33,261 nt of DNA, from contig CAZQXY010000003.1 of assembly GCA_964597455.1 (NCBI GenBank), forward strand, positions 1-33,261, given 5' to 3'. The first letter of the stretch is position 1. The number at the start of each line of letters is the position of its first letter. Positions 5,668 through 22,445 of the stretch are shown here, piece after piece. Origin of the DNA: an uncultured Desulfovibrionaceae bacterium. Lineage in GTDB: Bacteria; Bacillota; Dethiobacteria; DTU022; UBA8154. The notes beneath the pieces were generated by a model. It ran no database searches. It was not told where the DNA came from and worked only from the letters and a program-made list of their open reading frames with translations. The position numbers were made by a program, and so were the translations under genes.

Positions 5668-5702
5668 ATATGCCGGCCGATTAATCGACCGGCATATTTT
5701 TT
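5668..5702. terminator. GC-rich hairpin (ATATGCCGG-N12-CCGGCATAT) with a T-run on the plus-strand side; probable transcript end or insulator after the crotonase-ADH operon
   Basis: 9-bp outer stem, extendable through CGAT/ATCG with one mismatch. TTTTT(T) follows on the plus strand. On the minus strand, where the upstream gene lies, only a short UUU follows, so function as a minus-strand terminator is uncertain. Confidence 0.45.
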
Positions 5703-5748
5703 GTTGCTGCATAGTATTGCTGGAAATCTTGCCTTTAAAAAAGTTACT

Positions 5749-6816
5749 CTAGAAATCCGGAATTAACACTACCCGCTTCATTAACTTACCGGAGTGAGAA
5801 TCTTTAAAAGCATCTTCAATTTGACTCATCGGGCGAAATTCAATAAACGGTTCGATCTGAATTTTTCCCTCAAGAACCATTTTTAATACATCATTATAAT
5901 ACTTGGGCAGGCAGCCCCAGGTTCCAATAATTTCTGCATCGAAGGCCATCAATCGGGATAACATATATTCCACCTTTTTCATACCGTAACCGACTATAAC
6001 CATTTTTCCAACAAATGACAGCAACTCAAGCCCAATCTCCTGCCCTGCCGGAGAACCGGTGCATTCAAAAATTTTCCACCCGTACCCCGGAAGTTTCTTT
6101 TCTTTACTGTAAGCTCTGAATTCATCTCTGATTTCTTTTGTGCTTTTATCAAGAGTACTGAGCGCATAAGTAGCGCCATAATTTAATGAACGCTCTAACT
6201 TCTCCTTATTCCTGGCAATGGCTATTACTTCTTTGGCTCCCATGGCTGCGGCAATCTGCGTCATATATACTCCAATGCCGCCGGTAGCACCGATAACTAC
6301 AACATGATCCCCTTCCTGAATATCACCGCGAATAGCAGCCTGATAAGGTGATGTTATGGCATCAGCAACCACTGCGAAATTCTCCAGGGCCATCCCCTTA
6401 CGGTCTTCAACAAAACAAAGGTCTGCAGAAGGTACAGGAATATGAGTGGCAAAACCGCCGTATATGCCCATGCTGTTGCCGGGCATTTTTTGTTTCAGGC
6501 AACGGTTGCCCCGTCCCGATGCACAGATTTCGCAATTATTGCAAGGCATTACCGCCGGGATGATTACTTCTTTACCAATTAATTTTTCATCGCCTGCTAC
6601 AATGCGACCACTAACTTCATGGCCCAGTGTAAGCGGGGGCTTGTTTACAGTCGGCACCCCATCATAGAAATAACCGACATCAGTATGACATACCCCGCAT
6701 CCTGCCACTTCTACCAGAACCTCTCCAGGTTGCAGCTCCGGTACATCAATACTGGTTTTCTCCAACTTGCCGGGTTCGACCATTTGCCAGGTTTGAATTT
6801 TTTCCGGTACAGCCAT
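5749..6816 (-). CDS. Zn-dependent medium-chain alcohol/hydroxyacyl dehydrogenase (MDR family)
   Basis: Track ORF 5749..6870. Motifs: GCGVCHTD (catalytic Zn), CNNCEICASGRGNRC (structural Zn) and VIGATGGIG (NAD fold). Preferred start is the ATG at 6816 (MAVPEK...), preceded by AAGGAGGTAATCATA. The longer track start would overlap the crotonase gene. Confidence 0.85.
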   Translation of the reverse strand: MAVPEKIQTWQMVEPGKLEKTSIDVPELQPGEVLVEVAGCGVCHTDVGYFYDGVPTVNKPPLTLGHEVSGRIVAGDEKLIGKEVIIPAVMPCNNCEICASGRGNRCLKQKMPGNSMGIYGGFATHIPVPSADLCFVEDRKGMALENFAVVADAITSPYQAAIRGDIQEGDHVVVIGATGGIGVYMTQIAAAMGAKEVIAIARNKEKLERSLNYGATYALSTLDKSTKEIRDEFRAYSKEKKLPGYGWKIFECTGSPAGQEIGLELLSFVGKMVIVGYGMKKVEYMLSRLMAFDAEIIGTWGCLPKYYNDVLKMVLEGKIQIEPFIEFRPMSQIEDAFKDSHSGKLMKRVVLIPDF

Positions 6817-6854
6817 TATGATTACCTCCTTGTTTTCTGTAAAAAATCGGATTG

Positions 6855-7619
6855 CTATTTTCCTTTCCACACAGGTTTGCGTTTTTCCGTAAAGGCATTT
6901 AACCCTTCCACAGCGTCTTCGGTTTGCATAAGCTCATTCAGGTAAATATCATCAATAGCTTTTATCCCATCCTTAAAGCTCTTCCTCTGCCCGGCCAGCG
7001 CCGCCTTTTTGGTCAGCGCTAAAACCACAGGACTTTGCACTGCAAATTTCTTTAAAAACTCACTGCAACCATTGGCGAAATCATCGGCAGGAACAACCTT
7101 ATTCACCAGGCCCATCTGCTCGGCACGTGCGGCACTGATAACCTCCCCGCTTAACAGGAGCTCCAATGCTCTGGGCCAGGAAGTCAATTTCGGCAAAAGG
7201 TAACAGGCAATTGGAGGTAAAACACCGACGTTAATCTCCGGCTGCCCCAGTTTGGCCTTTTCTGAGGCCACTACCAGGTCACAGGCAAGAACGAGCTCGT
7301 ATCCGCCACCCAGAGCAGCACCATTTACCAGACCAACGATTGGTTTTTCTACCTCAAACATGGCAATAAAAAGCCTGTCGAATACATCGATCATTTGTCC
7401 TACCTTGTCCGGAGTATGGTCGGCCACGTCCACGCCGGCGGAAAAGGCTTTTCCTTCCGCATCCAAAACAACTATTGAGCCGGATTCCCCCTGCGCCCAA
7501 TTAAACGCCTTTACCATCTCTTCCATCATGGCAATGGTTAAAACGTTCAGTGGAGGACGGTTCAAAGTAATACGCACTATTCCGCCCTCGTTTTTCGTTT
7601 TCAGATATTCATAAGACAA
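6855..7619 (-). CDS. Enoyl-CoA hydratase/isomerase (crotonase) family protein
   Basis: Track ORF 6855..7664. Motifs: GKAFSAGVDV (oxyanion hole), GAALGGGYELVLACD, GQPEINVGV, and C-terminal EDAVEGLNAFTEKRKPVW. The TTG at 7619 has GGGGGG 6 nt upstream. The ATG at 7664 has its SD directly abutting, so the start is ambiguous. Confidence 0.85.
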   Translation of the reverse strand: MSYEYLKTKNEGGIVRITLNRPPLNVLTIAMMEEMVKAFNWAQGESGSIVVLDAEGKAFSAGVDVADHTPDKVGQMIDVFDRLFIAMFEVEKPIVGLVNGAALGGGYELVLACDLVVASEKAKLGQPEINVGVLPPIACYLLPKLTSWPRALELLLSGEVISAARAEQMGLVNKVVPADDFANGCSEFLKKFAVQSPVVLALTKKAALAGQRKSFKDGIKAIDDIYLNELMQTEDAVEGLNAFTEKRKPVWKGK

Positions 7620-7968
7620 ATAAATCCCCCCTTTTCTTACAAGATAAACCCGTTGTTCAACCATTCCTTCTGTTTTAACTAGAGTAAAAATATCCTCAAA
7701 TCAAATAAGTATTATCTTGCCTAAGCAATTGATATGTTATACTGATACTAAAGGCATCTATAATAGTAGATAAAAATTGATAAACAGTATTAATGGTCAT
7801 ACAAAAGCAACAGAAATATCTCACCTCCTTTACCCGTTATCCAGGTATCCGGTATCCAGGGACAATATCCTTATAATTTTTAAAATACCTTCCGAATCCC
7901 CCTTTCTTACTTCACTAACAGATTATAGATTATATTATAAAACATTCCTTCCAACCGTTTGATTGGCC

Positions 7969-8000
7969 ATATTATATTATAATTAGCCATAATATAATAT
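7969..8000. promoter_or_regulatory. Perfect 12-bp inverted repeat ATATTATATTAT-N8-ATAATATAATAT in the 480-bp region upstream of the crotonase-ADH operon; candidate operator
   Basis: Read directly: left arm 7969-7980, right arm 7989-8000, exact reverse complements. The all-A/T composition raises the chance expectation. Confidence 0.35.
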
Positions 8001-8145
8001 ATCATATCATAGATGAAAAATAAAATCTACACCCAAGCTATCACAGGTTATAGCAATAATCCCGACCACGGATAGTCAAAACAAGAGCCCCTATCTTAAC
8101 GGTATTATTATTATTAACTGCTCATCCCCACATGTAAATATAATT

Positions 8146-8886
8146 TTATGCATTCGGTTCAGCGCTATTTCTGTTCATTAACTTTTTAAAAAAAGAGTTA
8201 ACCAGTTTCTGGTATTCGGTAGGCGTCATAGTTTCTTCGGAAATTTTTTGCATCGTTGCAGAGGATATTAGTCCGTTTACTGCAAATTCTTCCCCTGCTT
8301 TTTTAACAAGCTCGTATTTTTCAAGATAAGCGTCACGAACAAAACCCAGAGAACTGGCAGGCACAAGAATCTCTCCCCCCAAATCCCAGGCGAAGTTTTT
8401 GCATATTGCCGTAAAATGATTGCGGATTTGATCAAAATTATCCCTTTCGGAAAAACCACAGGTAGAGACAAGCAACGCTGTTTGCTCGCGGGGCTTAAAC
8501 CTCCGGTGGCGGCAGTGTCCTTCCTTATCGTTTACTATGAAGGGGTCGAACATGGAAAAGCACCTATCCAGGACTGCTTTTACCGGAGTGCTAAAACCGA
8601 ATACATAAACAGGGCTGGCCAGGATTATTACATCTGCATCTTCAATTTCCGGCTTGAGAAGTTTCATATCATCTTCAACAGCACACTGTCCGGGAGTTTT
8701 AAACCAGCATGCCATGCAGGCTTTACAATAATGAATATTCATTTTATACGGATAGAATATTTTGAAATCGGCAGGATTAATTCCCTCTATGAATAGGTTC
8801 AAGATCTTTTCAGTAAATGATTTTTTATCTGGAAAACCGGATCTCGGCGAACCGCTTATAGCTACTACTTTTTTGGAAAACGTCAT
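8146..8886 (-). CDS. Flavodoxin-fold NADPH-dependent FMN reductase-like protein with an ISF-type cysteine cluster (iron-sulfur flavoprotein)
   Basis: Track ORF 8146..8895. N-terminus KVVAISGSPRSG is the FMN-reductase fold signature. The compact motif C-KA-C-MA-C-WFKTPGQ-C (CX2CX2CX7C) matches iron-sulfur flavoproteins. Preferred start is the ATG at 8886, 9 nt after GGAGGGGG. Confidence 0.7.
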   Translation of the reverse strand: MTFSKKVVAISGSPRSGFPDKKSFTEKILNLFIEGINPADFKIFYPYKMNIHYCKACMACWFKTPGQCAVEDDMKLLKPEIEDADVIILASPVYVFGFSTPVKAVLDRCFSMFDPFIVNDKEGHCRHRRFKPREQTALLVSTCGFSERDNFDQIRNHFTAICKNFAWDLGGEILVPASSLGFVRDAYLEKYELVKKAGEEFAVNGLISSATMQKISEETMTPTEYQKLVNSFFKKLMNRNSAEPNA

Positions 8887-9365
8887 AAGAAACATCCCCC
8901 TCCATTGATATTTCTTAATTTATACTATACCTTTTGTTTTGTATATCTTCTCTAAAAAGAGACTGTTTCCTGCTAAAAAAAATATCAAACCAAATTATTA
9001 ATATTTGCTACAATAATATTTAAATTAGAGAATTGAAACTTTTTAAACTTTTTATAGAAGTCGAATATTTTAGGCAGGAAATAAAAAATTATTGTTGAAG
9101 TAATTAATAATTAATAATAGTAAAAAGCTTTACCGGATTAATGTACCGCCATAGGAAATGCATTCTGATAGGGAGGTGTATACTGCTATCTTTTAATAAT
9201 TATAAGTAGGATGGTATGACGGTTATTGTTTTTATTGTCAGTTTCATTAATGTGTTGTGCACATAAAGTAAAACAGCAGCATGGGTGCCTCTATCAAGCC
9301 TTAATGATGGGGGTGTCTTTATGTGTTAATGAATTCCCAATTATTGAGAAGGAGGAAAATAAATC

Positions 9366-10952
9366 ATGACCGTCAGTAAATGGATGCATGCTGGAACAGT
9401 CTTAAAGATGAATGCCTCAAATTATCCTGATAAATTAGGCTGCCAGGATAAATTCAAGAGTTTTACCTTTAAAGAATGGAATGAACGGGCTTGCAGGCTG
9501 ACCAACGCATTATCGGAAGCGGGTGTCGGTTACGGTGAGCGGGTGGCCATACTCGCTTATAACCGCGTAGAATGGATGGAAATGTACGCCGGGTGCGCAA
9601 AGGGCGGGCAGATAGCCGTTCCGATTATGTTTCGGCTGGCTCCGGTTGATATTGAATATATCATCAACCACTCCGCAAGCAAAATAATTATTGTTGAAGA
9701 GCCTTTTATAGAAAGCATTAACAGCATACGGGATAAGCTTAAATCAATACCCCGGGATAATTTTATTTTCCTGGGAGAGGGAAAGGCTCCGGAAGGTTAT
9801 ATCCATTATAACGATTTTCTTAACCGGGGCAAACCTGCGGAACCGGATGTGATCGTAGACGCTAATGATCCGTGGACCATTATGTATACCTCCGGAACAA
9901 CAGGTAAACCAAAAGGAGTCGTAAGAAACCACGAAAGTTTTCTCGGGCAGTATTTCCTTAGTAATATGAGTATGGGCGTAAGACCGACAGATAAATCCAT
10001 GCTGGTAATGCCGATGTGTCATGTTAATTCCATCTATTATTCATTCGCCTATACTTACGTCACAGCGCCCATCATGGTGTATAATATGATAAGTTTTGAC
10101 GCTGAGGATCTTTTAAAAACAATATCTGATTATAAAATCACGTTCACCTCTCTGGTCCCGACCCATTATATTATGATCCTTGCGTTGCCTGATGAAATCA
10201 AACAAAAGTATGATGTTTCCAATGTCCGGCAGCTGCTTATATCCTCTGCTCCGGCAAGGAAGGACTTAAAGTTGGCCATTATGGACTACTTTAAATCGGT
10301 AGAGCTCTGGGAGGCCTATGGCTCTACAGAAGCGGCTCTTATAACGCTTTTGCGGCCGGAAGACCAGTTAACTCATCTTGGTTCGATAGGGAAAGAGATT
10401 TTTGGCATTGACAGAATTAAACTGCTTGATGAAGATGGAAATGAGGTACCGCAGGGAGAGGTAGGAGAACTATATTCCAGGTCCCCCGGAACATTCCAAA
10501 GGTACTGGGACGACCCTGAAAAAACCAAAGAGGTATTCCTCGGGGAATGGTGCACCGCAGGTGATATGGCTAAGAAAGATGAAAGTGGCTATTATTATCT
10601 GGTGGATAGAAAGAAAAACATGATTATTACAGGAGGCGAAAATGTTTATCCTTCTGAGGTGGAAAACGTCATTGGGGCACATCCGGCAGTGAAAGATGTA
10701 GCGGTAATCGGAGTCCCGGATGAAAAATGGGGCGAATCGGTTAACGCAATTATTATTTTACACCAGAATTACCAGCCTGGAGAAGAAATGAAGAAAGAAA
10801 TAATGGAATTTACTAAAGGCAAGGTGGCAGGTTTTAAACGCCCCAAAGATATCCATTTTATTTCCGATGAGGAAATGCCGCGAACGGGCACAGGCAAAAT
10901 ACTGCATCGCGTCTTGCGGGAACAGTTTGGCAAATGGAGCGATATGAATTAA
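9366..10952 (+). CDS. AMP-forming acyl-CoA/aryl-CoA ligase (adenylate-forming class I)
   Basis: 528 aa. Motifs: YTSGTTGKPKGV, EAYGSTE, GDMAKKDESGYYYLVDRKKNMIITGGENVYPSEVE, and a C-terminal catalytic Lys in TGTGKI. AAGGAGG lies 10 nt upstream. This is the only plus-strand gene. Confidence 0.85.
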   Translation: MTVSKWMHAGTVLKMNASNYPDKLGCQDKFKSFTFKEWNERACRLTNALSEAGVGYGERVAILAYNRVEWMEMYAGCAKGGQIAVPIMFRLAPVDIEYIINHSASKIIIVEEPFIESINSIRDKLKSIPRDNFIFLGEGKAPEGYIHYNDFLNRGKPAEPDVIVDANDPWTIMYTSGTTGKPKGVVRNHESFLGQYFLSNMSMGVRPTDKSMLVMPMCHVNSIYYSFAYTYVTAPIMVYNMISFDAEDLLKTISDYKITFTSLVPTHYIMILALPDEIKQKYDVSNVRQLLISSAPARKDLKLAIMDYFKSVELWEAYGSTEAALITLLRPEDQLTHLGSIGKEIFGIDRIKLLDEDGNEVPQGEVGELYSRSPGTFQRYWDDPEKTKEVFLGEWCTAGDMAKKDESGYYYLVDRKKNMIITGGENVYPSEVENVIGAHPAVKDVAVIGVPDEKWGESVNAIIILHQNYQPGEEMKKEIMEFTKGKVAGFKRPKDIHFISDEEMPRTGTGKILHRVLREQFGKWSDMN

Positions 10953-11115: not shown

Positions 11116-12696
11116 TTAACCGGCGCTTGATTGTGAAGGGTCAATATATTTTTTGCGCATTAAGGGCTTGTTAATTTTTCCTGTTACGTTGCGCAAGACA
11201 CTATCAAAGACAATTTTCTCAGGCCATTTATACTTGGCCAACCCCTGCTGTGAACAAAATTCAACGACTTCTTTTTCGGTCATCGTTTCCCCGGGGTATA
11301 ACTGAACTATCGCCATGGTTATTTCCACCAGTCTTTCATGAGGGTAACCTATTACGGCTACATCAGCAATTTTTGAATTTCTGCGCAGCACATCTTCAAT
11401 CTCAACCGGGAATATGTTTTCTCCCCCTCTGATAATGAGATCTTTCTTTCTGTCCGCAATATAAATATAGCCGTCCTCATCCATTTTAACCAGGTCACCG
11501 GTGTAGAGCCAGCCATCAACAAGCGTTTTAGCTGTCATTTCAGGGTTTCTAAAGTATTCTTTCATGTTTCTTGGGCCTTTTAGGAGCAGCTCACCTACTT
11601 CACCAACAGGAACATCCTTTCCGTATTCATCAACTACTCTCGTTTCAACATTATAAGTACCTTTGCCAATTGAACCGGGTCTGTCTAATACATCTTCGTC
11701 GTACAAGTTTAATGTGCCTCCGCCACCGCCTTCAGTGATGCCATAAATATTGCCTGTTTTAAAGGGAATAAACTCTCTCATGTCTTTATACAGTGAAGAA
11801 GGTACAGGTTGCGCTCCGATTACAATACCTCCGATTACATGGGAAAAGTCGTATTCGCCCATATCAATCGCACCTTTTTTAACGGCATTTACCGTGTCGG
11901 ACATGGTGGGCACCGTAACCCAACCATGGGTAACTTTCTCCTGATAAATGGTATCCAATAAATAGCGCGGGTCATTTAATTCTAAAAGAATAACAATCTT
12001 GCCACCGGCCAGGTAGGAGGGAAATGAGAGAAAAAAGCTCCCGCTATGATAAAAGGGGTGGGGCGCCAGATAAACCGTCTCGTGGCCTTCACCATAGGTT
12101 AGCGCATCGCCAATACCTATTTGGTAAAGAGTATCGTGTGCCTGGCAAACAGGCTTAGGGGGTCCGGTTGTCCCGGAGGTAAACATCAACTCTGCCGGGT
12201 CCCCCCAGTCGGTATCAACGATAATATCCTCGGAAGAAGAGCTTTCCATTATCTCGTTATATGAAACCATATTATCCGGGATATTCTCACCAAGACAAAT
12301 ATAAGAACTGACGCTGCTTAGTTCACCTTCTATGGGTTGAACCTTGGGAAGAAAGCCTTCTCCAAAAATAAAAACCTTTGGATTGCAGGCATCCGCTGCA
12401 TATTTGATATCCGTGGGAGCAAACCGGAAATTCAAAGGTACGGCAACAGCGCCTACCCTTAAAATAGCATGATAAGTTACAATCCATTCCATGCTGTTCA
12501 TTTGCAAATGAAGGATATAATCACCCTTTTGCACACCGAGTTTATTTTTCAAATAATTGGCAACTTTATTGGTTTGTTCGTTAAATTCTTTCCAGGTTAA
12601 AGAACGCCTCAATTTTTTTGATGGTGTGAGCTCAATAAGAAACTCCTGCTGCGGGTACTTCTTCGCATTTATGATACCGTAATAAGCAAAATTCAT
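11116..12696 (-). CDS. AMP-forming acyl-CoA/aryl-CoA ligase, last gene of the 2-hydroxyacid/ior operon
   Basis: 526 aa. Motifs: FTSGTTGPPKPV (P-loop variant), YGITEGGGGGT, GDLVKMDEDGYIYIADRKKDLIIRGGENIFPVEIE, VTGKINK. AGGAGG lies upstream of the ATG at 12696. Confidence 0.85.
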   Translation of the reverse strand: MNFAYYGIINAKKYPQQEFLIELTPSKKLRRSLTWKEFNEQTNKVANYLKNKLGVQKGDYILHLQMNSMEWIVTYHAILRVGAVAVPLNFRFAPTDIKYAADACNPKVFIFGEGFLPKVQPIEGELSSVSSYICLGENIPDNMVSYNEIMESSSSEDIIVDTDWGDPAELMFTSGTTGPPKPVCQAHDTLYQIGIGDALTYGEGHETVYLAPHPFYHSGSFFLSFPSYLAGGKIVILLELNDPRYLLDTIYQEKVTHGWVTVPTMSDTVNAVKKGAIDMGEYDFSHVIGGIVIGAQPVPSSLYKDMREFIPFKTGNIYGITEGGGGGTLNLYDEDVLDRPGSIGKGTYNVETRVVDEYGKDVPVGEVGELLLKGPRNMKEYFRNPEMTAKTLVDGWLYTGDLVKMDEDGYIYIADRKKDLIIRGGENIFPVEIEDVLRRNSKIADVAVIGYPHERLVEITMAIVQLYPGETMTEKEVVEFCSQQGLAKYKWPEKIVFDSVLRNVTGKINKPLMRKKYIDPSQSSAG

Positions 12697-12871: not shown

Positions 12872-13459
12872 TCAAGCCGTTTGCATTTGTCTGCCTGCCT
12901 CAAAGGCTTTAATGTTTAAATCCACAAACTTGTCGGGCACCATACGCTTAATAACATTAAGCCAGGCGCTCTCTTCACCGCCAACCAGGCTGGAAAGGAC
13001 ACCGAGCAGAACTACACCAACAACTGCCGGATTGCCGAGTTCTTTGGCTTTTTCGGTAGCATTAACCCAAAACACTCTGGAAGCAGCACTCTTTAGCAGG
13101 GAATCCAGATCCTCTTCCCGGGGGTAACTGGCTTTCCCCAGGTTTACAGACGGAGGCGGAATGCGATAACGATTTACGATAATAGCAGCATCTTTATTAA
13201 TAAAAGCCGGCCATCTTCCCGCTTCGAGCATTTCAAAACCAAGCAGGTAATCCACATCTCCCTGAATGGCCACAGGTGCATAGACCTTATCCCCCCAACG
13301 TACATGGCTTTCCACTGTACCGCCACGCTGGGCCATCCCATGAACTTCCGCCTTCTTAACATCATAACCCAACTCCAGGCCCACTTCCGCCAGAATATTG
13401 CTGGCCAGAATAGTACCCTGTCCGCCAACACCGGCCATCAAGAAATCAATTTTTTCCAA
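12872..13459 (-). CDS. iorB: Indolepyruvate/arylpyruvate:ferredoxin oxidoreductase, beta subunit
   Basis: 195 aa. Starts ...MAGVGGQGTILASNILAE..., the pyruvate/ketoisovalerate oxidoreductase gamma-type domain. It lies immediately downstream of iorA. Confidence 0.85.
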   Translation of the reverse strand: MEKIDFLMAGVGGQGTILASNILAEVGLELGYDVKKAEVHGMAQRGGTVESHVRWGDKVYAPVAIQGDVDYLLGFEMLEAGRWPAFINKDAAIIVNRYRIPPPSVNLGKASYPREEDLDSLLKSAASRVFWVNATEKAKELGNPAVVGVVLLGVLSSLVGGEESAWLNVIKRMVPDKFVDLNIKAFEAGRQMQTA

Positions 13460-13498: not shown

Positions 13499-15259
13499 TT
13501 ATACTTCCTGAACGATAGCCTCTACAGGACAAACCTGAACGCAAAGTCCACAGCCGTTGCAAAGCAATGGATCTATACTTACATTATCCTCTTCCTGCAT
13601 GAGAGGCGAACACCCCAGATCCAGGCAGGTCCCACAGTTGGTGCACTCATCAGCATTTACCTGGGGAGGGGTACGTTTTTCCTTAGTGTAAAGGACGCAA
13701 GGCCGCTTGGAGATAATTACCGAAGGCTTTCCGTTATTAAGGTGATCTTCCAGTACCCCCTCGAATTTCTCCAGGTCATACGGATCAACCACATCTACCA
13801 GATTATAACCTATGCTGCGCACCAGTTTTTCCAGATCTACCGCATTGGTTGTTTTTTTCTGCAAGGTAATACCTGTTCCCGGATGTTGCTGGTGTCCTGT
13901 CATGGCCGTTACACTATTATCTGCAATAATAGTTGTAACATTGCTCTCATTGTAGAGCACATTTATCAGGGGATGAATACCCGAATGGAAAAAAGTAGAA
14001 TCACCGATGACGGCTACAATACGGTCCTTTACCCCTGCTTTTGCCACCCCATGAGCCACTCCGATACTTGCCCCCATACATCCGCACGTATGCATCGCGC
14101 TAAGGGGGGGCGCAAAGCCTAGGGTATAACATCCGATATCACCGAGCACTAAAACGCCGGCCTCCCTGAGAACATGGAACATACCGCGATGGCCGCAACC
14201 CGGGCAGAGCATTGGCGGCCGTACAGGAAGCTCGACAGCGGGGGCAGTTGCCGCTGCTTCCGCTTCAACCGCCGGCGCATCAATCAGCCCCGCGTCAAGA
14301 GCGCACTGATGGATCAAGAAAGGGCTAAATTCACCGATCATGGGGAAAATATCCTTTCCTTTTACTTCTATCCCCAATAAACGGAGATGCTCTTCAAAAA
14401 AGGGATCCAGTTCCTCAATTACTACCACGGTTTTTACCCTGGAAGCAAATTCTTTAATGAGTTTTTGCGGCAGGGGATAAACCATGCCCAGCTTGAGAAA
14501 GGTAGCGTTTGGAAAGACCTCACGCGCATACTGGTAAACTGAGCCGGCTGCAACAATCCCCAGGGAATCATCTCCCGGTTCAATGCGGTTAATGTCAAGC
14601 GTCTCAGCATAATCGGCCAGTTTAATAATCTTCTCCTCTATCACTGGATGACGGTGACGGGCATTGGCAGGAACCATCACACATTTTAAAGGAGCACGTT
14701 CATAATACGGAAGGTCCTCCGGAGGCGGCGGAGGGCCGTTTTCCGAGATCTCTACCGGCGAAGAAGAATGAGAGATCCGCGTAACGGTCCGTACCATAAC
14801 CGGCGTATCAAAGGCCTCGCTCATTTCCAGCGCAATACCCATAAACTGCTTACATTCCTCGCTGTCGGACGGCTCGAGCATTGGAAGCTTAGCAAATTTG
14901 GCATAGTTTCGATTGTCCTGTTCGTTTTGGGAACTGTGCATGCCCGGGTCATCCGAACAGGCGATAACAAGCCCTCCTTTCAACCCGGTATAGACGGCAT
15001 AAAAAAGTGAATCGGCAGCAACGTTAAGCCCCACATGCTTCATTGCAACCATAGCCCTGCTGCCTGCATATGCTGCGCCAATACCCACGTCCATAGCAAC
15101 TTTCTCGTTAGGGGCCCACTCGGCTAAAACCCCCGGGTACCTGGCGAAGTTTTCCATTATCTCTGTGCTGGGCGTCCCCGGATAGGCGGCCCCTACCCGT
15201 ACCCCGCTGAGATAAGCACCATAGGCCAGGGCCTCATTTCCTGTCATTAGTTTTTTCAA
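13499..15259 (-). CDS. iorA: Indolepyruvate/arylpyruvate:ferredoxin oxidoreductase, alpha subunit
   Basis: 586 aa. N-terminus KKLMTGNEALAYGAY...YPGTPSTEI. TPP motif IGDSTFFHSG...N. Two C-terminal ferredoxin-type clusters (CTNCGTC..., CNGCGLCVQVCP). TTG start, 9 nt after AGGAGG. Confidence 0.9.
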   Translation of the reverse strand: MKKLMTGNEALAYGAYLSGVRVGAAYPGTPSTEIMENFARYPGVLAEWAPNEKVAMDVGIGAAYAGSRAMVAMKHVGLNVAADSLFYAVYTGLKGGLVIACSDDPGMHSSQNEQDNRNYAKFAKLPMLEPSDSEECKQFMGIALEMSEAFDTPVMVRTVTRISHSSSPVEISENGPPPPPEDLPYYERAPLKCVMVPANARHRHPVIEEKIIKLADYAETLDINRIEPGDDSLGIVAAGSVYQYAREVFPNATFLKLGMVYPLPQKLIKEFASRVKTVVVIEELDPFFEEHLRLLGIEVKGKDIFPMIGEFSPFLIHQCALDAGLIDAPAVEAEAAATAPAVELPVRPPMLCPGCGHRGMFHVLREAGVLVLGDIGCYTLGFAPPLSAMHTCGCMGASIGVAHGVAKAGVKDRIVAVIGDSTFFHSGIHPLINVLYNESNVTTIIADNSVTAMTGHQQHPGTGITLQKKTTNAVDLEKLVRSIGYNLVDVVDPYDLEKFEGVLEDHLNNGKPSVIISKRPCVLYTKEKRTPPQVNADECTNCGTCLDLGCSPLMQEEDNVSIDPLLCNGCGLCVQVCPVEAIVQEV

Positions 15260-15294: not shown

Positions 15295-16503
15295 TCATTG
15301 GGATGATGAAGCCAATTGTTCAAAAAATGGTTCCAACCTGGCGAGAAATTGGGCCTCAGAGAAAAAGCGCAAATCGGACATATCAGCATCAAAAACCACC
15401 CCCGGAAGGCCGGTTCTCTCGCTTAAAACGCTGCGTTTGTCATAAAGGCCCAGGGAGGTCGATTTACAGCTGCGGTTTGAGAAAAGCACAAAACCGTCAA
15501 CACCGTACTTTTGGAAAAAATTCATTTTCAACTGCAATCTGTATTCAAAAGAACGGTTGACAAACCCCGCAGTATAGTTTTCCGCCAGGCTTTCAAGTGG
15601 GCGCTTTAGATCAAAAGAATAAGCCCACGAATGGGTATATTGAGAAACAGCTACCAGAGAATTATGGTCTGCAAACAGCTCGGAAAACCAGCGCAATTTT
15701 GGCCAGAGGGGTATATGGTCAAAATAGATTTTATAGCGTTCGCCGGGTATGGCAGTTATTCCTTCTTTTATTCTCCCATCAACCTCCTCCTTGAGCGCCT
15801 GGTAATATTCTACCGCCTCACGTGTGCCACGCATGGTAACAATAGGGGCCATGTGAAAACAGGCATCAAAAAAGCCGAAAGGAGCGGGTTTCATGGCAGC
15901 GGTATCAAGAATCTCATTCCAAAGCCTGCAGGCCTCATTGGCATAATGCAGTACCTCGATTAAACGATCATAATCGAAGGGTTCTGCCGTAATTTTTTCC
16001 ACAAAGGCGATCATCTCCTTGAGCTGATCTACATAATAACCGGTAACAAGCTCTTCGGGCTGATCCAGTATCTGGGGTGCATCGACCAGAAAATAAGGTA
16101 CATTATAATACCTGCCGGCTACTTCAAACCACTTCGCCAGGGAGCCGCACTGGGTATTGCAGCAAAATGTTACATCCGGCTGAAGAATTTCCCCGACCGG
16201 GTGCTCATCAGCATAGGCATCACCGATACCGCAGCGGGCATAACCACAAAGGTCGTGGGCATACCCTTTGGCTTCTGCATAAAGGGAGAGCTTATCCGCT
16301 ACCTTCCTTGCTGAAGCCAGCGCACCAAAGTTTTCCGGGTAATAGGGGAAAACCCCCGCCGCGTAGAGTATCTCTACCGGAAAGATTGCAGTCACCCAGG
16401 CGACTGGAATGCGTTTTTCTTTTGCATCAGCTCCTTTGGCATAATAATCTTGCATGATCTTTTTCATCCGGGCAGCTGTTTTAAAGACCTTTTTCTCAGA
16501 CAT
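15295..16503 (-). CDS. 2-hydroxyacyl-CoA dehydratase / benzoyl-CoA reductase family catalytic subunit (HgdA/FldB/BcrB-like)
   Basis: Track ORF 15295..16587. Preferred start is the ATG at 16503 (MSEKKVFK...), with GGGGGTGA 6 nt upstream. Family features: ...PVAWVTAIFPVEILYAAGVFPYYPEN..., DLCGYARCG, and a conserved C-terminal Cys (RSCKS). Confidence 0.8.
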   Translation of the reverse strand: MSEKKVFKTAARMKKIMQDYYAKGADAKEKRIPVAWVTAIFPVEILYAAGVFPYYPENFGALASARKVADKLSLYAEAKGYAHDLCGYARCGIGDAYADEHPVGEILQPDVTFCCNTQCGSLAKWFEVAGRYYNVPYFLVDAPQILDQPEELVTGYYVDQLKEMIAFVEKITAEPFDYDRLIEVLHYANEACRLWNEILDTAAMKPAPFGFFDACFHMAPIVTMRGTREAVEYYQALKEEVDGRIKEGITAIPGERYKIYFDHIPLWPKLRWFSELFADHNSLVAVSQYTHSWAYSFDLKRPLESLAENYTAGFVNRSFEYRLQLKMNFFQKYGVDGFVLFSNRSCKSTSLGLYDKRSVLSERTGLPGVVFDADMSDLRFFSEAQFLARLEPFFEQLASSSQ

Positions 16504-17644
16504 TGCTTTCACCCCCAACCATTTCCATGAATGCATGTATTCTCGTCTGCAACTGACCCAGTGAAGTATCTCCGAACTCGGTTTCAATACGCAGGGAGGG
16601 AATCCCCGCCTGCTCTAATGCCTGTAGATTATCATAGTAATCATAGTTCTCAGGTTCACAGTATTTCAGGTGTAAAAAAAGCACCCCCTGAACCTTTTTC
16701 TGCTGTGCTGCTTTTACAAGGTTATACCGCCGCGGGGCCGACGGTACATCATAACCGGCAAAAGGTGTTTTCTTTAGCTGGCGGTTAGCCAGAGACTCCC
16801 AGGGGGATGCATCGGTATCTTCAACATCGGCTTCGATATAACGAAAACCGTTTTTAAGATCATCTCCTACGACAGTCACACCACTTTCATCCAGGTAATC
16901 CAGTACCTCCGGGGGATTGATGAATGTACCGGAAATATATAGTTTTGTTTTATTGTTACTAACCGGAGGTTTTGTTTTTTCTTCCAGCGTTGCTACCAGC
17001 TCGCTTAAAAAGCGGTTTAGTTTTTCCCTTTCAATTACCATAGATGCCCCAAGCACAGCGTAAAGGTCTTTATTGCTGATAGCCTCCGGATTATGCTCAT
17101 GAATGCTATACAGCTTGCGCAACAAGCCCCTGTTGCTGTTGTAAAGCCGGATACTTTGTCTTAATTCTTCATCGGTGATCTCTTTTCCTCTGTACCCGCT
17201 CAGGTTGTGCGTTATTCTCTCCAGCTCCCCAAGGAGGTATTTTTTGGCGCTCGGGCGTTCAACTTGCCTTGGCAAGCGGAAGCTGTCCATATAGGGAAGC
17301 GGAGTGTTATGTTCCCAAATACCAGGAAGCAAACGGGTAGAATCACACGTGAGCGGAAAAATCACTCCATCCAAAAAATCAAGTTCGCCATTTATAGCCA
17401 GGGCCAACCCCTTACGGACATAAGAACACGCCCAGGTCTGCAGGTGGGCTTCTGCCTGCTCCATCCTGGCCCTACCGCCGCAAATACCAAAGGGGAAAAA
17501 ACCTGCCGCATGAATTAACTCCTCTGGAACGTCTGTCAGAAGAAAACCGATTGCTTTGCCGCCTGTTTTTTGTTTCCACTCCTTGACCTGCCGGCCGGGA
17601 TCCGCAAATGCTTTTTTTAGAACTCCTAATGCTTCTATGCTCAC
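16496..17644 (-). CDS. 2-hydroxyacyl-CoA dehydratase / benzoyl-CoA reductase family catalytic subunit (HgdB/FldC/BcrC-like)
   Basis: 382 aa. GTG start 6 nt after AAGGAGA. Family signatures: ...KAIGFLLTDVPEELIHAAGFFPF... and ...FLHLKYCEP.... The stop overlaps the next start by 8 nt (ATGTCTGA), which indicates translational coupling of a heterodimer. Confidence 0.8.
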   Translation of the reverse strand: MSIEALGVLKKAFADPGRQVKEWKQKTGGKAIGFLLTDVPEELIHAAGFFPFGICGGRARMEQAEAHLQTWACSYVRKGLALAINGELDFLDGVIFPLTCDSTRLLPGIWEHNTPLPYMDSFRLPRQVERPSAKKYLLGELERITHNLSGYRGKEITDEELRQSIRLYNSNRGLLRKLYSIHEHNPEAISNKDLYAVLGASMVIEREKLNRFLSELVATLEEKTKPPVSNNKTKLYISGTFINPPEVLDYLDESGVTVVGDDLKNGFRYIEADVEDTDASPWESLANRQLKKTPFAGYDVPSAPRRYNLVKAAQQKKVQGVLFLHLKYCEPENYDYYDNLQALEQAGIPSLRIETEFGDTSLGQLQTRIHAFMEMVGGESNV

Positions 17645-17728: not shown

Positions 17729-18727
17729 TCATTTGCGGTTGGATTCAAATTCTGGAGCAATATTACTTAATGGCTCTCCTTTCAAAAAGCGTTCGATATT
17801 ATCTACAAAAACACCGCCGAATCTCGCAGCATACATATCCGTCCAGCTGGAAACATGTGGGGTAATAAGAACATTAGGCGTTCCCCATAGTTCATCTTCC
17901 GGAGGCAAGTAAGAAGGCAGAGGGCTTTTAATCCACTGCGTATCGTTAGCAGCCCCGGCGATCCATCCCTCCCTCAAAGCCTTCATCAGGGCATCTTTAA
18001 CAACCAACGAACCGCGGGCACAATTGATCAGGTACGCCGTCTTTTTCATCAGTTTAAAACGGTCTTCATTCATCAAACCCAGAGTTTCGGGAGTCTCAGG
18101 ACAAGAGAGGACCAGAAAATCCGCCTGTTTAATTACTTCGTCCACCTGTTTATTCAAATACATCTCATCTACATTGGGGATGTCCATAATCAGAATATCG
18201 GTTCCAATCACGCGCATATCAAAGCCCTTGGCCCTTTTGGCAATCTGACGCCCAATTCCCCCGAGGCCAACTATCCCCAGCGTTTTTCCATAGAGTTCTT
18301 CACCGCGCACACGGACAAAATTTTTTTCTTTTTGATTATCCCAGATCTGATTATATTTTTTTGTTAAATTTAACATCAGGCCAAGAGTAAATTCCGCCAC
18401 CGGTATTCCCGACCCCCCGGGGAGATGCAGCAACGGAATATGTGCGGGCATTTGGCCCCACTTAATAAAGTGATCATAACCTGAACTAAATGTCATCACC
18501 CACTGCAGGTTTTTCATCTGCGGAATTTTTTCAACGATCATTCCTGTACCGATAATATGCGTATCTAATACATCATCACCAAGTGACGAGCCATCCTGGG
18601 ATAAACGGATACGAATTTCGCCGCTGGCGACTTTATCCGGGAAACGTTCTTTTATCAATTGTTCATACTCATCCGGAGCACCCAATCCGGGTTGTAAAAC
18701 AACCAGGATATTGAGAGGATTAAACAT
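17729..18727 (-). CDS. D-isomer-specific 2-hydroxyacid dehydrogenase (NAD-binding)
   Basis: Track ORF 17729..18745. Motifs: GIVGLGGIGRQIAKRA (GxGxxG), NCARG, and ITPHVSS (catalytic His). Preferred start is the ATG at 18727, after GGAGGTG plus 7 nt. Confidence 0.85.
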   Translation of the reverse strand: MFNPLNILVVLQPGLGAPDEYEQLIKERFPDKVASGEIRIRLSQDGSSLGDDVLDTHIIGTGMIVEKIPQMKNLQWVMTFSSGYDHFIKWGQMPAHIPLLHLPGGSGIPVAEFTLGLMLNLTKKYNQIWDNQKEKNFVRVRGEELYGKTLGIVGLGGIGRQIAKRAKGFDMRVIGTDILIMDIPNVDEMYLNKQVDEVIKQADFLVLSCPETPETLGLMNEDRFKLMKKTAYLINCARGSLVVKDALMKALREGWIAGAANDTQWIKSPLPSYLPPEDELWGTPNVLITPHVSSWTDMYAARFGGVFVDNIERFLKGEPLSNIAPEFESNRK

Positions 18728-19213
18728 AAAAAGACACCTCCACAAAATTAAAATTCATCTTCCGTTCAGGAAGCAACCCATGCTGCCGTATTACTTTTCA
18801 AAATTTAACAACAGGGCCAGATCACATTTCGCGCAGAGGCATCCGTACTACCATTCTTCAGCCTGAAAATGAATTTTTAAATAAACCCCTTTAAAAATTT
18901 AACGCCAAAAACCACAAGAATTAGTGCTGCATATAGAGATTAGAGTTAGTTTTAACAGTTATTACAGATCCTAATAAGTATACTATTTTATGTTTTGTTA
19001 ATTGCCTGACTTGTTAATAAATATACATCCCCTGCCTTTCCGATTCCATAATTCCTTGCCATTTATTTATCCTATAATAATACATATTCTATGCGGATGC
19101 GGTTTTTCCTGCAGAAAATATAAAAAAAAATAAAATATCCCTCTTTTTTGATTTAAGTATAATATCTGAAAATTTATAGCGTGGCACATTGCGCACAGTT
19201 GTATACTATACAT

Positions 19214-20041
19214 TTATATATTCAATATAATTGCGGCAGTACCACCCAGAATTCGTTCTTTCGCTTCTTCATTAAGGGGCAACTGTCTTAAATCATGAAT
19301 ATTTTGTTTAATATCCTTTACTCCGGGCCAGTCAGAACCAAATAATACCTTATGGCTAATTTTTTCTAACTCGGGGAAATAGTCCGGTAACTTTTTAGGA
19401 GGCAAACCTGCTATCTCCGTATAAACGTTTGTATGCAGTTTTGTTAAGAAAAAGGCTCTGTCATACCAGAACCCCCTGCCCCCATGGACAAGAATAATCT
19501 TCATCTTAGGAAAATCAATAGCCACATCATCAAGGTAAAGGGGATCTCCATACTTAAGCCTTGCCCCCTCAAAAACAGAAGAACCGGTATGAAACATAAC
19601 CGGAATTTGCAACTCCTCGGCCTGTGCATATAAAGGATACAATGAAGAGTCATTTGGATAAAAATGCTGATAAGTAGGATACATTTTTAATCCTCGAAAT
19701 CCCTTTTTTACCAAATGCTGCAGTTCAATTTCCATTCTAACGGTCGTGAAAGGGTTTATGCTGGCGAATGGGATTAGCATTTCCTGCCCCCTGCAGAACT
19801 CAAGCACATATTCGTTGGAACATATACCGGTTACTGCAGGACTAAGTTCTGCCAGGACGACTCCGTAATCAATGCCACTTACTTTTAAGTATTGCACGAA
19901 AAAATTCGGATCACAGTATGATGCATAAAATTCATCCCAATTCTTTCCCGCATGCATATTCCTAATCCAATTAAAAGTACTCTCCCCGTAATACTCATAA
20001 TGTATAGGGTGAAGATGAAAATCAATCACGGGAGCACCCAT
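19214..20041 (-). CDS. Amidohydrolase_2-type metal-dependent hydrolase/decarboxylase (TIM barrel)
   Basis: 275 aa. N-terminal metal motif IDFHLHP, then MFHTG, ILVHGG and GSDWP. This residue pattern matches the ACMSD/LigW/LigI-type amidohydrolase_2 superfamily. The substrate cannot be inferred. Confidence 0.7.
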   Translation of the reverse strand: MGAPVIDFHLHPIHYEYYGESTFNWIRNMHAGKNWDEFYASYCDPNFFVQYLKVSGIDYGVVLAELSPAVTGICSNEYVLEFCRGQEMLIPFASINPFTTVRMEIELQHLVKKGFRGLKMYPTYQHFYPNDSSLYPLYAQAEELQIPVMFHTGSSVFEGARLKYGDPLYLDDVAIDFPKMKIILVHGGRGFWYDRAFFLTKLHTNVYTEIAGLPPKKLPDYFPELEKISHKVLFGSDWPGVKDIKQNIHDLRQLPLNEEAKERILGGTAAIILNI

Positions 20042-20096
20042 TCGCCAAAACCCCTTTCATCTTAAAACCGCCGTACTCCACATTTGCTTAGCCGGA

Positions 20097-20507
20097 TCAC
20101 GCCGGTAAAAATTGATAGCTTAGCTGTCCATCAGGAAGAGAAATTGCCTCAGCTTTTACCTCCATACCAACTGTAATTTTTTCTTCAGGAGTATCCTTGC
20201 TTAAACGGCCAAAAACTTTAATGCCATTGAAATCCGCCAGTGCAAGAATATAGGGTACATCAGATTCGAAGCCGGTAGGGCCATAATTTACTTTAGTAAA
20301 GCTTATGATCCTCCCACTGCCTTCAACTTTAATCCACTCCATATCTCTCGCCAAACAAGAACTGCAATCTGCTTGCGGCGGAAAATAAACGCGGCCACAC
20401 GCGCGGCATTTGGTAGCACGGATTTCATTTTTGCTCAGATAGTCTACAAAAGCCTCTGTTTTTGTTTGAGATGTAAAGCTAACATATCCAAATTTTTCAA
20501 AACCCAT
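20097..20507 (-). CDS. DUF35 Zn-ribbon/OB-fold protein (thiolase-associated, BbsA-like)
   Basis: Track ORF 20097..20699 is over-extended into the thiolase gene. The real start is the ATG at 20507 (MGFEKFGY...), preceded by GGGAGGT plus 6 A. Zn ribbon CRACGRVYFPPQADCSSC is followed by an OB-fold segment. About 136 aa. Confidence 0.75.
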   Translation of the reverse strand: MGFEKFGYVSFTSQTKTEAFVDYLSKNEIRATKCRACGRVYFPPQADCSSCLARDMEWIKVEGSGRIISFTKVNYGPTGFESDVPYILALADFNGIKVFGRLSKDTPEEKITVGMEVKAEAISLPDGQLSYQFLPA

Positions 20508-20511
20508 TTTT

Positions 20512-21666
20512 TTACCTCCCAAAAATGGCCACATTGCCGTATATTCCAACGCCGCCAATATTATGCACCAGACCGATCTCTGCACCCGGTACTTGTATCT
20601 CACCGGCTTCACCGCGTAACTGCAATACAATGGTACGCACCTGTGAACCGCCGGTAGCTCCGATGGGATGGCCTTTAGACAGCAGGCCGCCGTCAACATT
20701 TACGGGAATCTTTCCTTCCAAATAAGTCTCCCCTTCCCGAATCAGCTCCGATCCTTTGCCGGGCTCAGCAAAACCAAGGTTCTCGTAAGCCATCATCTCA
20801 GCGATGGTAAAACAATCGTGAACCTCTGCCACATCAATATCCTGGGGGCCTAACCCTGCCATCTTGTAAGCCTCCTGGGCAGCCACACGGGCACAATTCA
20901 GGCCGTCTAACGCATCCCTGCCCGTCATCGTCAGGGAAGCTGTTCCCGACCCTGTCCCCAAAATCCACACCGGCTTTTTAGATATTTCCTTAGCTCTATC
21001 CGCGCTGGCCAGAATCATGCAGGAAGAGCCGTCCGCATTCGCACAACAATCAAATTTTTTTAACGGACTGGCAATGTATTCGGAATTTATACATTGTTCC
21101 AGGGTAAGCTGTTTGCGGTAGACTGCTTTTTCGTTAAGTGTACCATATTTGGTAGCCTTAACTCTAATTAACGCAAGATCCTCTTCCGCCGTGCCATACC
21201 GGGCAAAATGTGCGCGGGCATGCATCGCATAATAAGCAGGCATCATCGTCCCAAAAGGTGATTCCCACATAATATCCGCTCCACGCCCCATACGTTCCTG
21301 AGAATCTGCGGAAGTGATTTCAGACATCTTTTGAAAGCCCAGCACAACAACAATATCGTGTAACCCTGATTTAATCAATGCATAGGCAGCCCTTAAGCCG
21401 CTGGTGCTTGATGAACAAACTGATTCCATTGCGAAAGTAGGTTGTGGATTCAAACCCAGGTACTCCGCCATAAGACCGGCAGGACTGCGTTGTTTATCAT
21501 ACTCCGGCGCTGAGCAAATGATTGAAGCACCAACATCCCTGTTTGTTATGCCTGCATCTTTCATCGCTTCACTGTAAGCTTCAAAAGCTAATTCCCTGAT
21601 AGAACCTTCATAATTTCTCACGAAAGTACTCTGGCCTACTCCGATAACGGCCACATCTTTTGGCAT
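20512..21666 (-). CDS. SCP-x/thiolase-like protein (non-AtoB type; BbsB / archaeal thiolase-like)
   Basis: Track ORF 20512..21729. Preferred start is the ATG at 21666 (MPKDVAVIGVGQS...), after GGGGGAGGGAACAAT. Nucleophile Cys in ESVCSSSTSG. C-terminal GHPIGATG and NIGG. A 4-nt gap separates it from the DUF35 gene. Confidence 0.8.
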   Translation of the reverse strand: MPKDVAVIGVGQSTFVRNYEGSIRELAFEAYSEAMKDAGITNRDVGASIICSAPEYDKQRSPAGLMAEYLGLNPQPTFAMESVCSSSTSGLRAAYALIKSGLHDIVVVLGFQKMSEITSADSQERMGRGADIMWESPFGTMMPAYYAMHARAHFARYGTAEEDLALIRVKATKYGTLNEKAVYRKQLTLEQCINSEYIASPLKKFDCCANADGSSCMILASADRAKEISKKPVWILGTGSGTASLTMTGRDALDGLNCARVAAQEAYKMAGLGPQDIDVAEVHDCFTIAEMMAYENLGFAEPGKGSELIREGETYLEGKIPVNVDGGLLSKGHPIGATGGSQVRTIVLQLRGEAGEIQVPGAEIGLVHNIGGVGIYGNVAIFGR

Positions 21667-21698
21667 ATTGTTCCCTCCCCCAAAATGTATATATACCC

Positions 21699-22445
21699 CT
21701 AAGGCATAATCATCCCGCCATCGATACAAATCGTCTGGCCGGTTATAAAACTTGATTCATCCGAGGCTAAAAAGACAATCGTGGGCGCTATTTCCTCCGG
21801 TTTTGCAAAACGCCCCAGAGGAATACGTTCTAAGTATTTTTCCTTAAATTTTGGATCGTGCGCTATTTTTTGCGTCATATCGGTTTCAGCCATCGGTGAA
21901 ATTGTATTTACCCTTATCGAATACCTGGCCAGTTCTTTGGCGGCAGACTTTGATAATGCATAAATGCCTCCCTTGGCGGCGGTGTAGTTTGCCTGTCCTA
22001 CTGTACCGTTCAACCCGGCTGAAGAAGTGACGTTAATAATTGAACCGGACTTCTGCTCCATCATCGGCTTTGACACCGCTTGAATGCAGTAAAAGGTACC
22101 ACTGAGATTAATTCTGATGATATCTTCCCACTGCTCCTCCGTTGTATTCCACAGCATAACAGGCCTGCTTACGCCGGCATTGTTAAAGAGTGCGTCTATC
22201 CGGCCAAAATACTCTAGAGCTTCGTCAACCATTTCAAAAACTTGTGCCCTGTTACCGACATCTACCTGCTTCACAAATACCCGGCGGCCAAGATTTTTAA
22301 CCGCCTGCACCATGGGAGCATCAGGCTGGATGCTTCGGCTAACCAGTACAAGATCGGCGCCTTCCCTGGCCAGCGCCAAGGCTACCGACTCGCCGATACC
22401 TTTCCGCGCACCGGTTACAATAACAACCTTGTCTTTTAACCGCAT
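21699..22445 (-). CDS. Short-chain dehydrogenase/reductase (FabG / 3-hydroxyacyl-CoA dehydrogenase-like)
   Basis: 248 aa. Motifs: VTGARKGIG (TGxxxGIG), NNAG, and the catalytic YTAAK (YxxxK). Confidence 0.85.
   Translation of the reverse strand: MRLKDKVVIVTGARKGIGESVALALAREGADLVLVSRSIQPDAPMVQAVKNLGRRVFVKQVDVGNRAQVFEMVDEALEYFGRIDALFNNAGVSRPVMLWNTTEEQWEDIIRINLSGTFYCIQAVSKPMMEQKSGSIINVTSSAGLNGTVGQANYTAAKGGIYALSKSAAKELARYSIRVNTISPMAETDMTQKIAHDPKFKEKYLERIPLGRFAKPEEIAPTIVFLASDESSFITGQTICIDGGMIMP

Follow-up and report, generated by a model that had tools for sequence, protein, structure and literature searches.

Why should a catalytic pair of the 2-hydroxyacyl-CoA dehydratase (HAD)/benzoyl-CoA reductase (BCR) superfamily be encoded without the ATPase that energises it? 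The question is raised by the 33,261-nt stretch of DNA analysed here (the window), which is an entire contig (C3) of a Dethiobacteria metagenome-assembled genome (MAG) of 273 contigs, 2.1 Mb and 84% completeness, and in which an earlier note, made from the sequence alone, had picked out two such subunit genes with no activator of the ASKHA [4Fe-4S] type anywhere around them. In light of the comparative results presented here, we propose that the pair is a HAD-type (R)-2-hydroxyacyl-CoA dehydratase which, after loss of an ancestral tandem ATPase from its genus, is probably activated in trans by a non-cognate activase. The proposal draws on family assignment, cluster-ligand pattern, synteny, phyletic pattern, gene loss and selection; the substrate, and which ATPase now activates the enzyme, we infer. 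The genes in question are the following:

16496-17644, minus strand: beta subunit (HadC-like), 382 aa, GTG start with AGGAG ahead of it
15295-16503, minus strand: alpha subunit (catalytic, HadB-like), 402 aa from the ATG at 16503
16496-16503, minus strand: beta/alpha overlap ATGTCTGA, an octamer read directly in the sequence

Both subunits bear the family signature ascribed to them, with PF06050 (HGD-D) covering beta (278 bits) and alpha (238 bits) end to end, and two homologous HGD-D subunits thus stand side by side. The 8-nt overlap is likewise real: the ATG of alpha and the TGA of beta both lie inside the octamer ATGTCTGA (16503-16496), which points to translational coupling of the two genes. 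The 430-aa, TTG-started alpha frame in the mechanically made list of open reading frames (ORFs) is an upstream extension of the 402-aa form.

The earlier note had left the choice between dehydratase and BCR open, and here the evidence favours the former. Among solved structures, alpha matches HadB best (3o3m_A, 204 bits; MbdO 133, BzdO 124) and beta matches HadC (3o3m_B, 174 bits; BzdN 149, MbdN 144), and in NCBIfam both are nearest to HadB/HadC and then to BcrB/C and BzdO/N, all far under the cut-offs; the BzdNO/BcrBC models give 131-169 bits against cut-offs of 421-487, and the model for the homodimeric DCCP (NF040772) gives 174 and 39 bits against 350. Diagnostic residues for the alignment columns were taken from the BzdNO structure paper of 2025, in which BzdN holds an [8Fe-9S] double cubane through Cys36/73/100/263/293/327, BzdO binds a [4Fe-4S] cluster via Cys95/128/380 and uses Glu65 and His131 as acid/base catalysts, and HADs have lost the second sub-cluster in both subunits (PMC11971306). 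In the window's beta, Cys73, Cys100 and Cys329 align with BzdN Cys73/100/327, so that three of the six double-cubane cysteines are present; Leu, Lys and Phe occupy positions 36, 263 and 293, and the BzdN-type Arg53 is missing. In the roughly 30 beta orthologs examined the same three cysteines alone are retained and Leu, Lys/Gln and Phe/Ser fill the remaining positions, which is the single-cubane state; all six cysteines are found in the positive controls, BzdN and a pair from a Dethiobacter alkaliphilus MAG (G024:C26). In alpha, Cys86, Cys119 and Cys346 correspond to BzdO Cys95/128/380 and the Glu of YPEN is conserved, but Leu replaces the catalytic His131, and Cys at position 124 and Lys at 381 (BzdO Glu381) are as in HadB. 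Each subunit thus retains three cluster-ligating cysteines.

The same division emerges from maximum-likelihood trees, which were built with few characterised anchors and leave out the HgdAB, FldBC, LcdAB and Thauera BcrBC sequences: the clade of the window falls outside the BzdO/BzdN clade with support values of 100/100 (alpha) and 99/94 (beta), and is distinct, its sister relationships not being settled there. The Dethiobacter alkaliphilus control, an ATPase-ATPase-beta-alpha cluster with six cysteines plus Ser44, His131 and Glu381, groups with BzdNO. Furthermore, the window's own genome encodes on contig C78 a 660-aa protein of the tungsten-AOR family (L146:613-2595, minus strand) that scores 950 bits to Geobacter BamB (4z3w_A), with a Cys-rich 180-aa BamC-like ORF downstream (L146:93-635), so that this Dethiobacteria MAG carries a class II BCR core; a sister genome (G011:C5, L069) also has a BamB homolog, at 844 bits to 4z3w_A. 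With BamB homologs present, ring reduction would not need the window pair. Together, the cluster ligands, catalytic residues, trees and BamB homologs classify the pair, as far as sequence can, as a HAD-type dehydratase and not a BCR. Its predicted activity would be dehydration of an (R)-2-hydroxyacyl-CoA to the (E)-2-enoyl-CoA.

At the level of the order, two homologous pairs with 42-44% alpha identity (L059, G034:C1, 9747-12178; L060, G038:C224, 9607-12051) combine a HadB-like alpha with a six-Cys, BzdN-like beta and have no ATPase within 9 kb; they look like intermediates between the BCR and HAD cluster states.

With the pair assigned, the whereabouts of its activator can be addressed. The 33-kb window indeed encodes none: a six-frame PF01869 (BcrAD_BadFG) scan of the genome, a check that had been suggested for this locus, returned 8 matches, none of them on C3, and six ATPases of various types, run against the window by tblastn, produced nothing above noise (E > 1). 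The ATPases lie on five other contigs:

C273 (L011: 1580-2371): stand-alone 263-aa activase, adjoining a different HGD-D pair
C201: 351-aa ATPase, from the PF01869 scan of the genome
C7 (1447 aa), C96 and C180: fused or truncated multi-domain ATPases, from the same scan

The genome content thus makes an ASKHA [4Fe-4S] ATPase available, its action on the pair being putative. The C273 activase scores 243 bits to MbdQ, 233 to HadI and 209 to HgdC, has both cluster-Cys motifs (KCAAGTGRF and CTVFAESEV), and is of a type common to all four genomes of the window's genus, some of which also encode a DCCP-R-type and a third, C147-type activase. The second HGD-D pair on C273 (L011: 13-225, 243-1511), also found in a congener (G003:C3:158-162 kb, L073), has a BCR/DCCP-like architecture and a single 263-aa activase of its own: its beta carries Arg53 as well as all six cysteines of the double cubane, and its alpha resembles neither HadB nor BzdO in the catalytic residues.

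That a distal activator is nothing out of the ordinary follows from 53 orthologous loci (62-92% alpha identity) in Dethiobacteria, Peptococcaceae, Desulfosporosinus, Desulfotomaculum, Thermincola and others. The order beta-alpha-IorA-IorB is nearly invariant across them, and an ATPase, in the form of one activase or of BzdPQ-like tandem genes, stands within 10 kb in only 5 of the 53:

Thermincola and Bacillota SKS3: D-2-hydroxyacid dehydrogenase (2HADH)-ligase-activase-beta-alpha-IorAB, activase and beta overlapping
Desulfosporosinus UBA8488: tandem ATPase pair 1.9 kb upstream of the dehydratase pair
Desulfocucumis: one ATPase 1.6 kb downstream of the pair
Desulfovirgula: tandem ATPases about 9 kb downstream of the pair

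The Thermincola and SKS3 order reads as that of a had operon in which a ligase stands where the transferase would be. The operon SDR-thiolase-DUF35-Amidohydro_2-2HADH-beta-alpha-IorAB-ligases is conserved in many genera of the window's taxonomic family, with an ATPase almost never found within 9-10 kb, and 12 further Bacillota genomes that have the pair and no adjacent ATPase all (12/12) carry a stand-alone ATPase elsewhere, of the tandem type in 6 and of single types only in 6. In this dehydratase subfamily the activator is usually distal. The suggestion that it acts in trans from elsewhere in the genome is thereby supported, and the absence noted in the window, real as it is, ceases to be an anomaly, since distal encoding as the rule of the subfamily makes it essentially an ordinary split arrangement. 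The narrower point of interest is the window's genus, which has lost the tandem and would have to rely on another activase. In the literature we found no description of this operon type, of a Dethiobacter dehydratase, or of distal or heterodimeric HAD activators.

The likely ancestral partner can be traced through sister genera. Several of these encode tandem ATPases (about 261 and 292-316 aa) in a string PaaK-ATPase-ATPase-Dch-Had-(thioesterase)-DegV-FakA (PaaK-ACT-ACT-ECH-ZnADH in the synteny comparison), whose neighbourhood corresponds to positions 950-7664 of the window:

6855-7664, minus strand: Dch-like enoyl-CoA hydratase, best match dienoyl-CoA hydratase (177 bits vs 292)
5749-6870, minus strand: Had, Zn-dehydrogenase (TIGR03201, 490.7 bits vs cut-off 338.7)
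7665-8145, minus strand: 481-bp spacer upstream of dch-had, the site of the tandem ATPase genes in sister genera, empty here

Had is an above-cut-off equivalog of 6-hydroxycyclohex-1-ene-1-carbonyl-CoA dehydrogenase (TIGR03201); the hydratase beside it is only Dch-like. Two sister genomes (G017 and G008) have tandem and dehydratase on one contig, 18-20 kb apart, and an ATPase tree resolves two orthologous tandem clades common to these lineages. We assign the tandem to the pair on the strength of family biochemistry, of a sister genome in 10 contigs (G011) in which this pair represents the only HGD-D genes and the tandem, on another contig, the only stand-alone ATPases, and of short distances between the two in Desulfocucumis and Desulfosporosinus (1.6-1.9 kb) and in Desulfovirgula (about 9 kb), three further Bacillota lineages. 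Among sister genomes with a checked HGD-D inventory, this HAD-type pair is the sole unpartnered heterodimeric candidate. Matches to the BzdQ equivalog model TIGR03192 exceed the trusted cut-off in 17 genomes of Dethiobacteria and 6 of other Bacillota, 23 in all. In G011 the tandem sits within a string (L069, G011:C5, 6176-11527) of a BamB-like gene, a Fer4 protein, tandem ATPase 1, tandem ATPase 2 (BzdQ-like) and TetR; with ASKHA ATPases placed immediately after bamBC-like genes, one may ask whether these ATPases could also serve a class II-type reductase. A 683-687-aa molybdopterin oxidoreductase stands beside the tandem ATPase and dch-had genes in two genera (L072, G010:C57, 3840-5891; L078, G021:C7, 603-2666).

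The second tandem ATPase of the sister genera scores 436 bits to the BzdQ equivalog, over the cut-off of 380, next to dch-had, and in G017 and G008, both of them devoid of a BzdNO-like pair, the gene string of the pair itself includes a true Oah (575 vs 464). It was these BzdQ, Had and Oah matches that raised a split class I BCR, in which the window pair would be the catalytic module of a Bzd-like aryl-CoA reductase and the BzdPQ-like module would be encoded apart and be missing in the genus. We dropped this reading, which we regard as highly unlikely, on the cluster ligands (in beta, Arg53 and half of the six double-cubane cysteines are missing), the catalytic residues (alpha lacks His131 and Glu381), the trees (both subunits fall outside the BzdNO clade, in which the genuine Bzd-type G024:C26 sits with all residues) and the BamB homologs, which supply ring reduction; moreover, the orthologs with a single activase show the had-operon layout, and a heterodimeric ATPase module (BzdPQ/BcrAD) is present in the sister genera but not in the window's genome. 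The Oah/BamA homolog of that genome (C54:5752-6909, L139) is of a variant type (363 bits vs cut-off 464), and Oah has no match in the other three genomes of the genus.

Returning to the HAD-type dehydratase, the phyletic distribution over 33 genomes of the window's taxonomic family shows how closely the pair and the tandem travel together:

Pair present, tandem present: 18 genomes
Pair present, tandem absent: 4 genomes, exactly the window's genus (4/4)
Pair absent, tandem present: 0 genomes
Pair absent, tandem absent: 11 genomes

The co-occurrence is significant (Fisher p = 7e-6, uncorrected for shared ancestry). Within the window's genus (G000-G003) no BzdQ-type gene was found, a 10-contig, 90%-complete assembly included; in the window the syntenic position ahead of dch-had is intact but vacant, no ATPase remnant occurs there or elsewhere in the window, and a 2.6-kb gap at the same place in one congener (G001) likewise holds no ATPase remnant. 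Partial ATPase matches at contig ends of congeners were considered as the lost tandem and rejected, being of the DCCP-R type. On present gene content, the genus has lost its ancestral tandem ATPase pair. A cognate tandem hidden in unassembled or unbinned DNA could mimic such a loss: the MAG, in 273 contigs, reaches 84% completeness, one activase type of the congeners has no counterpart in the assembly, and in G004 it was solely the truncation of the gene at a contig end that hid the tandem from the TIGR03192 search. That all four genomes lack the tandem, the 10-contig assembly among them, and that the very site by dch-had lies on the window with neither ATPase nor remnant make an assembly artefact distinctly unlikely.

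Loss of the partner has left no sign of decay. Between congeners, dN/dS is 0.07-0.08 for alpha and 0.10-0.12 for beta (two comparisons), values like those of neighbouring genes which indicate an enzyme in use, and no relaxed selection after tandem loss is seen in them. That the pair might be a relic decaying since the tandem was lost is further prompted by the congener G003, where alpha is split into two ORFs; we consider this extremely unlikely given the dN/dS of about 0.1, the intact frames in G000, G001 and G002 and a second intact paralogous pair, the genus keeping both the window's pair and a C233-type one (C233; G002:C237; G003:C3). The split alpha of G003 (L051/L131, G003:C7, 9755-11075) may itself be an assembly error, since in G011, from the same long-read MAG series (isolate names SBF912LR...), iorA is broken into three (L053, G011:C9, 7511-9345), and assembly indels are as likely as pseudogenes to explain the split genes in these two genomes. 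The C233 pair (1-2056, minus strand), with beta and alpha 60% and 73% identical to the window's, is truncated where its contig ends; its counterparts in congeners are part of a second Ior-ligase cluster (L052, L063) that likewise has no ATPase.

How, then, would the enzyme be started? The pair would form an alpha/beta heterodimer with one [4Fe-4S]-type cluster per subunit, and, as in all HADs, one ATP-energised electron from an ASKHA [4Fe-4S] ATPase would initiate catalysis and be recycled over many turnovers, so that the activator would be needed in catalytic amounts only and need not be co-encoded. The ancestral partner would have been the tandem of BzdP/BzdQ-like ATPases beside dch-had. With that tandem lost and the pair under purifying selection, another activase would have to act in trans, for which the 263-aa C273 protein, conserved in all four genomes of the genus, is the best candidate. 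HADs are known to recycle a single activated electron (PMC11971306), and foreign activators are used routinely, as in the pairing of hgdC of A. fermentans with hgdAB of C. symbiosum (PMC6767645), which together make service in trans by a non-cognate activase mechanistically unproblematic.

The earlier note had also entertained a different electron donor, and had named the iron-sulfur flavoprotein nearby and ferredoxin reduced by Ior:

8146-8895, minus strand: FMN_red iron-sulfur flavoprotein (PF03358), with CKACMACWFKTPGQC = CX2CX2CX7C

The motif CKACMACWFKTPGQC is present as described, and the protein is a possible electron carrier, but nothing supports its replacing the ATPase. An ATP-independent activation in this genus, with the low-potential electron coming directly from Ior-reduced ferredoxin or from the flavoprotein, would fit a pair retained under selection after its cognate ATPases were lost, with Ior and the flavoprotein encoded close by; yet no family member is known to work without an ASKHA ATPase (general knowledge; PMC11971306), the genome has other activases, the flavoprotein occurs within the same gene string as the tandem ATPases in G010, and six other Bacillota genomes share the state of a pair with single activases only. 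We therefore hold it to be very improbable.

The neighbouring genes suggest what the dehydratase might act upon. After tsf the minus-strand order is SDR, thiolase, DUF35, Amidohydro_2, 2HADH, beta, alpha, IorA, IorB and an AMP ligase, beyond which follow a plus-strand AMP ligase, the FMN_red flavoprotein, the hydratase, the Zn-dehydrogenase, a PaaK-like ligase, a thioesterase, DegV and FakA:

19214-22445, minus strand: SDR, thiolase, DUF35 and Amidohydro_2 module, upstream in the same string (Pfam, NCBIfam, conserved synteny)
17729-18745, minus strand: D-isomer-specific 2-hydroxyacid dehydrogenase (PF02826, 179 bits), 84 nt upstream of beta
13499-15259 (iorA) and 12872-13459 (iorB), minus strand: indolepyruvate:ferredoxin oxidoreductase (TIGR03336, 689 bits vs cut-off 651)
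11116-12696, minus strand, and 9366-10952, plus strand: two AMP-forming acyl-CoA ligases (PF00501)

The 2HADH is kept upstream of the pair in most ortholog loci and is the presumed supplier of the (R)-2-hydroxy acid, iorAB directly follows the pair in nearly all, and the ligases occupy the place of the CoA-transferase in clostridial had/fld operons; dehydrogenase and CoA-activating enzyme of a HAD system are thus both at hand, the latter as a ligase instead of the classical transferase. In the route we propose, 2HADH, ligase and HAD would convert an arylpyruvate via (R)-aryllactate and aryllactyl-CoA to arylacrylyl-CoA, with part of the arylpyruvate diverted through IorAB to arylacetyl-CoA and reduced ferredoxin. 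The SDR-thiolase-DUF35-Amidohydro_2 module is presumed to serve beta-oxidation of the enoyl-CoA product, whose side chain would be trimmed by hydratase, dehydrogenase and thiolase-DUF35 to give benzoyl-CoA; this in turn would enter the BamB/Dch/Had/Oah pathway. A formally identical phenyllactyl-CoA route to benzoyl-CoA has been put forward, as a hypothetical proposal only, for a benzene degrader (PMC13416013).

A different role that still requires an ASKHA ATPase, such as hydration in reverse or reduction of another acyl-CoA, has some appeal in that the HadB/HadC scores fall far below the equivalog cut-offs, the clade is distinct in the trees with its sister relationships unsettled, and the island lacks an enoyl-CoA reductase/Etf branch but has beta-oxidation and benzoyl-CoA-pathway genes. 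We nonetheless judge it unlikely, given the HadB-like active-site pattern and the 2HADH and CoA ligase that stand directly ahead of the pair across lineages.

It is important to note that several observations weigh against a trans-activated HAD-type dehydratase as set out above. The C273 activase adjoins its own, different HGD-D pair with a 6-Cys beta, so that its service to the window pair is an assumption, and any ATPase named as partner of the pair is a putative one; the DCCP-R-like and C147-type activases of congeners are not seen in the 84%-complete MAG, and with such further types in the genus the actual partner may be another protein. The tandem ATPases adjoin benzoyl-CoA-pathway genes as well, and bamBC-like genes in G011. 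Neither subunit reaches the HadB/HadC equivalogs NF052455/NF052456 (254 vs 750 and 206 vs 700 bits), which weakens the predicted substrate and reaction direction, and the pair appears by these scores to form a separate subfamily and not HadBC itself. Finally, there is the sparse anchoring of the trees.

The missing activator of the window is thus for the most part a case of ordinary trans encoding. Beyond it, the comparisons outline an uncharacterised, widespread HAD-type subfamily of Bacillota to which the pair would belong, tied to IorAB and 2HADH, using AMP-forming CoA ligases for the CoA-transferase, and embedded in a benzoyl-CoA island. Its activator is often a tandem of BzdP/BzdQ-like ATPases and not a homodimer of the HgdC type, which suggests that heterodimeric "BCR-type" ATPases also serve dehydratases; matches to the BzdQ equivalog model combined with HGD-D matches are then likely to produce false class I BCR calls in MAG surveys. 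Loss of the tandem with retention of the dehydratase amounts to a natural experiment on activator promiscuity, and, should the route hold true, it would let strict anaerobes channel aromatic amino acids by way of phenyllactate into the benzoyl-CoA pathway.

Among known systems, HadBC/HadI of Clostridioides difficile (3o3m, 4eht) comes closest, as the best structural-sequence match for both subunits. As in HadBC, each subunit of the window pair has three cysteines, the Glu is conserved, BzdO position 131 is occupied by a residue other than His, and a D-2-hydroxyacid dehydrogenase lies upstream; the Thermincola and SKS3 orthologs share with it an activase directly upstream of beta. The window pair differs in its equivalog scores (only 254 and 206 bits vs 750 and 700), in having AMP-forming ligases for the CoA-transferase and IorAB fused into the operon, and in lacking both an acyl-CoA dehydrogenase/Etf reductive branch and an activator in cis. 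The likeness to FldABC/FldI of Clostridium sporogenes, where fldI is reportedly adjacent, is one of context, not of sequence comparison: the proposed aryllactyl-CoA substrate class and the link to aromatic 2-oxo acids agree, whereas FldA, the CoA-transferase subunit, has no counterpart in the window, and the downstream fate looks like beta-oxidation to benzoyl-CoA and not reduction to arylpropionate. BzdNOPQ of Aromatoleum (8s02) belongs to the same superfamily, and its ATPases resemble the BzdP/BzdQ-like tandem that partners the pair in sister genera; the window's beta, however, lacks the [8Fe-9S] ligands, its alpha has neither His131 nor Glu381, the trees place both subunits outside the BzdNO clade, and the enzyme would use its ATPase catalytically, not stoichiometrically. 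DCCP/DCCP-R of Carboxydothermus (6eno, 7yyl), finally, is a distant homolog of the window's beta (106 bits), but DCCP is a homodimer with six to seven cysteines per subunit and is represented in the window's own genome by a separate DCCP-like gene on C177, whereas the window encodes a heterodimer with three aligned cysteines in each subunit.

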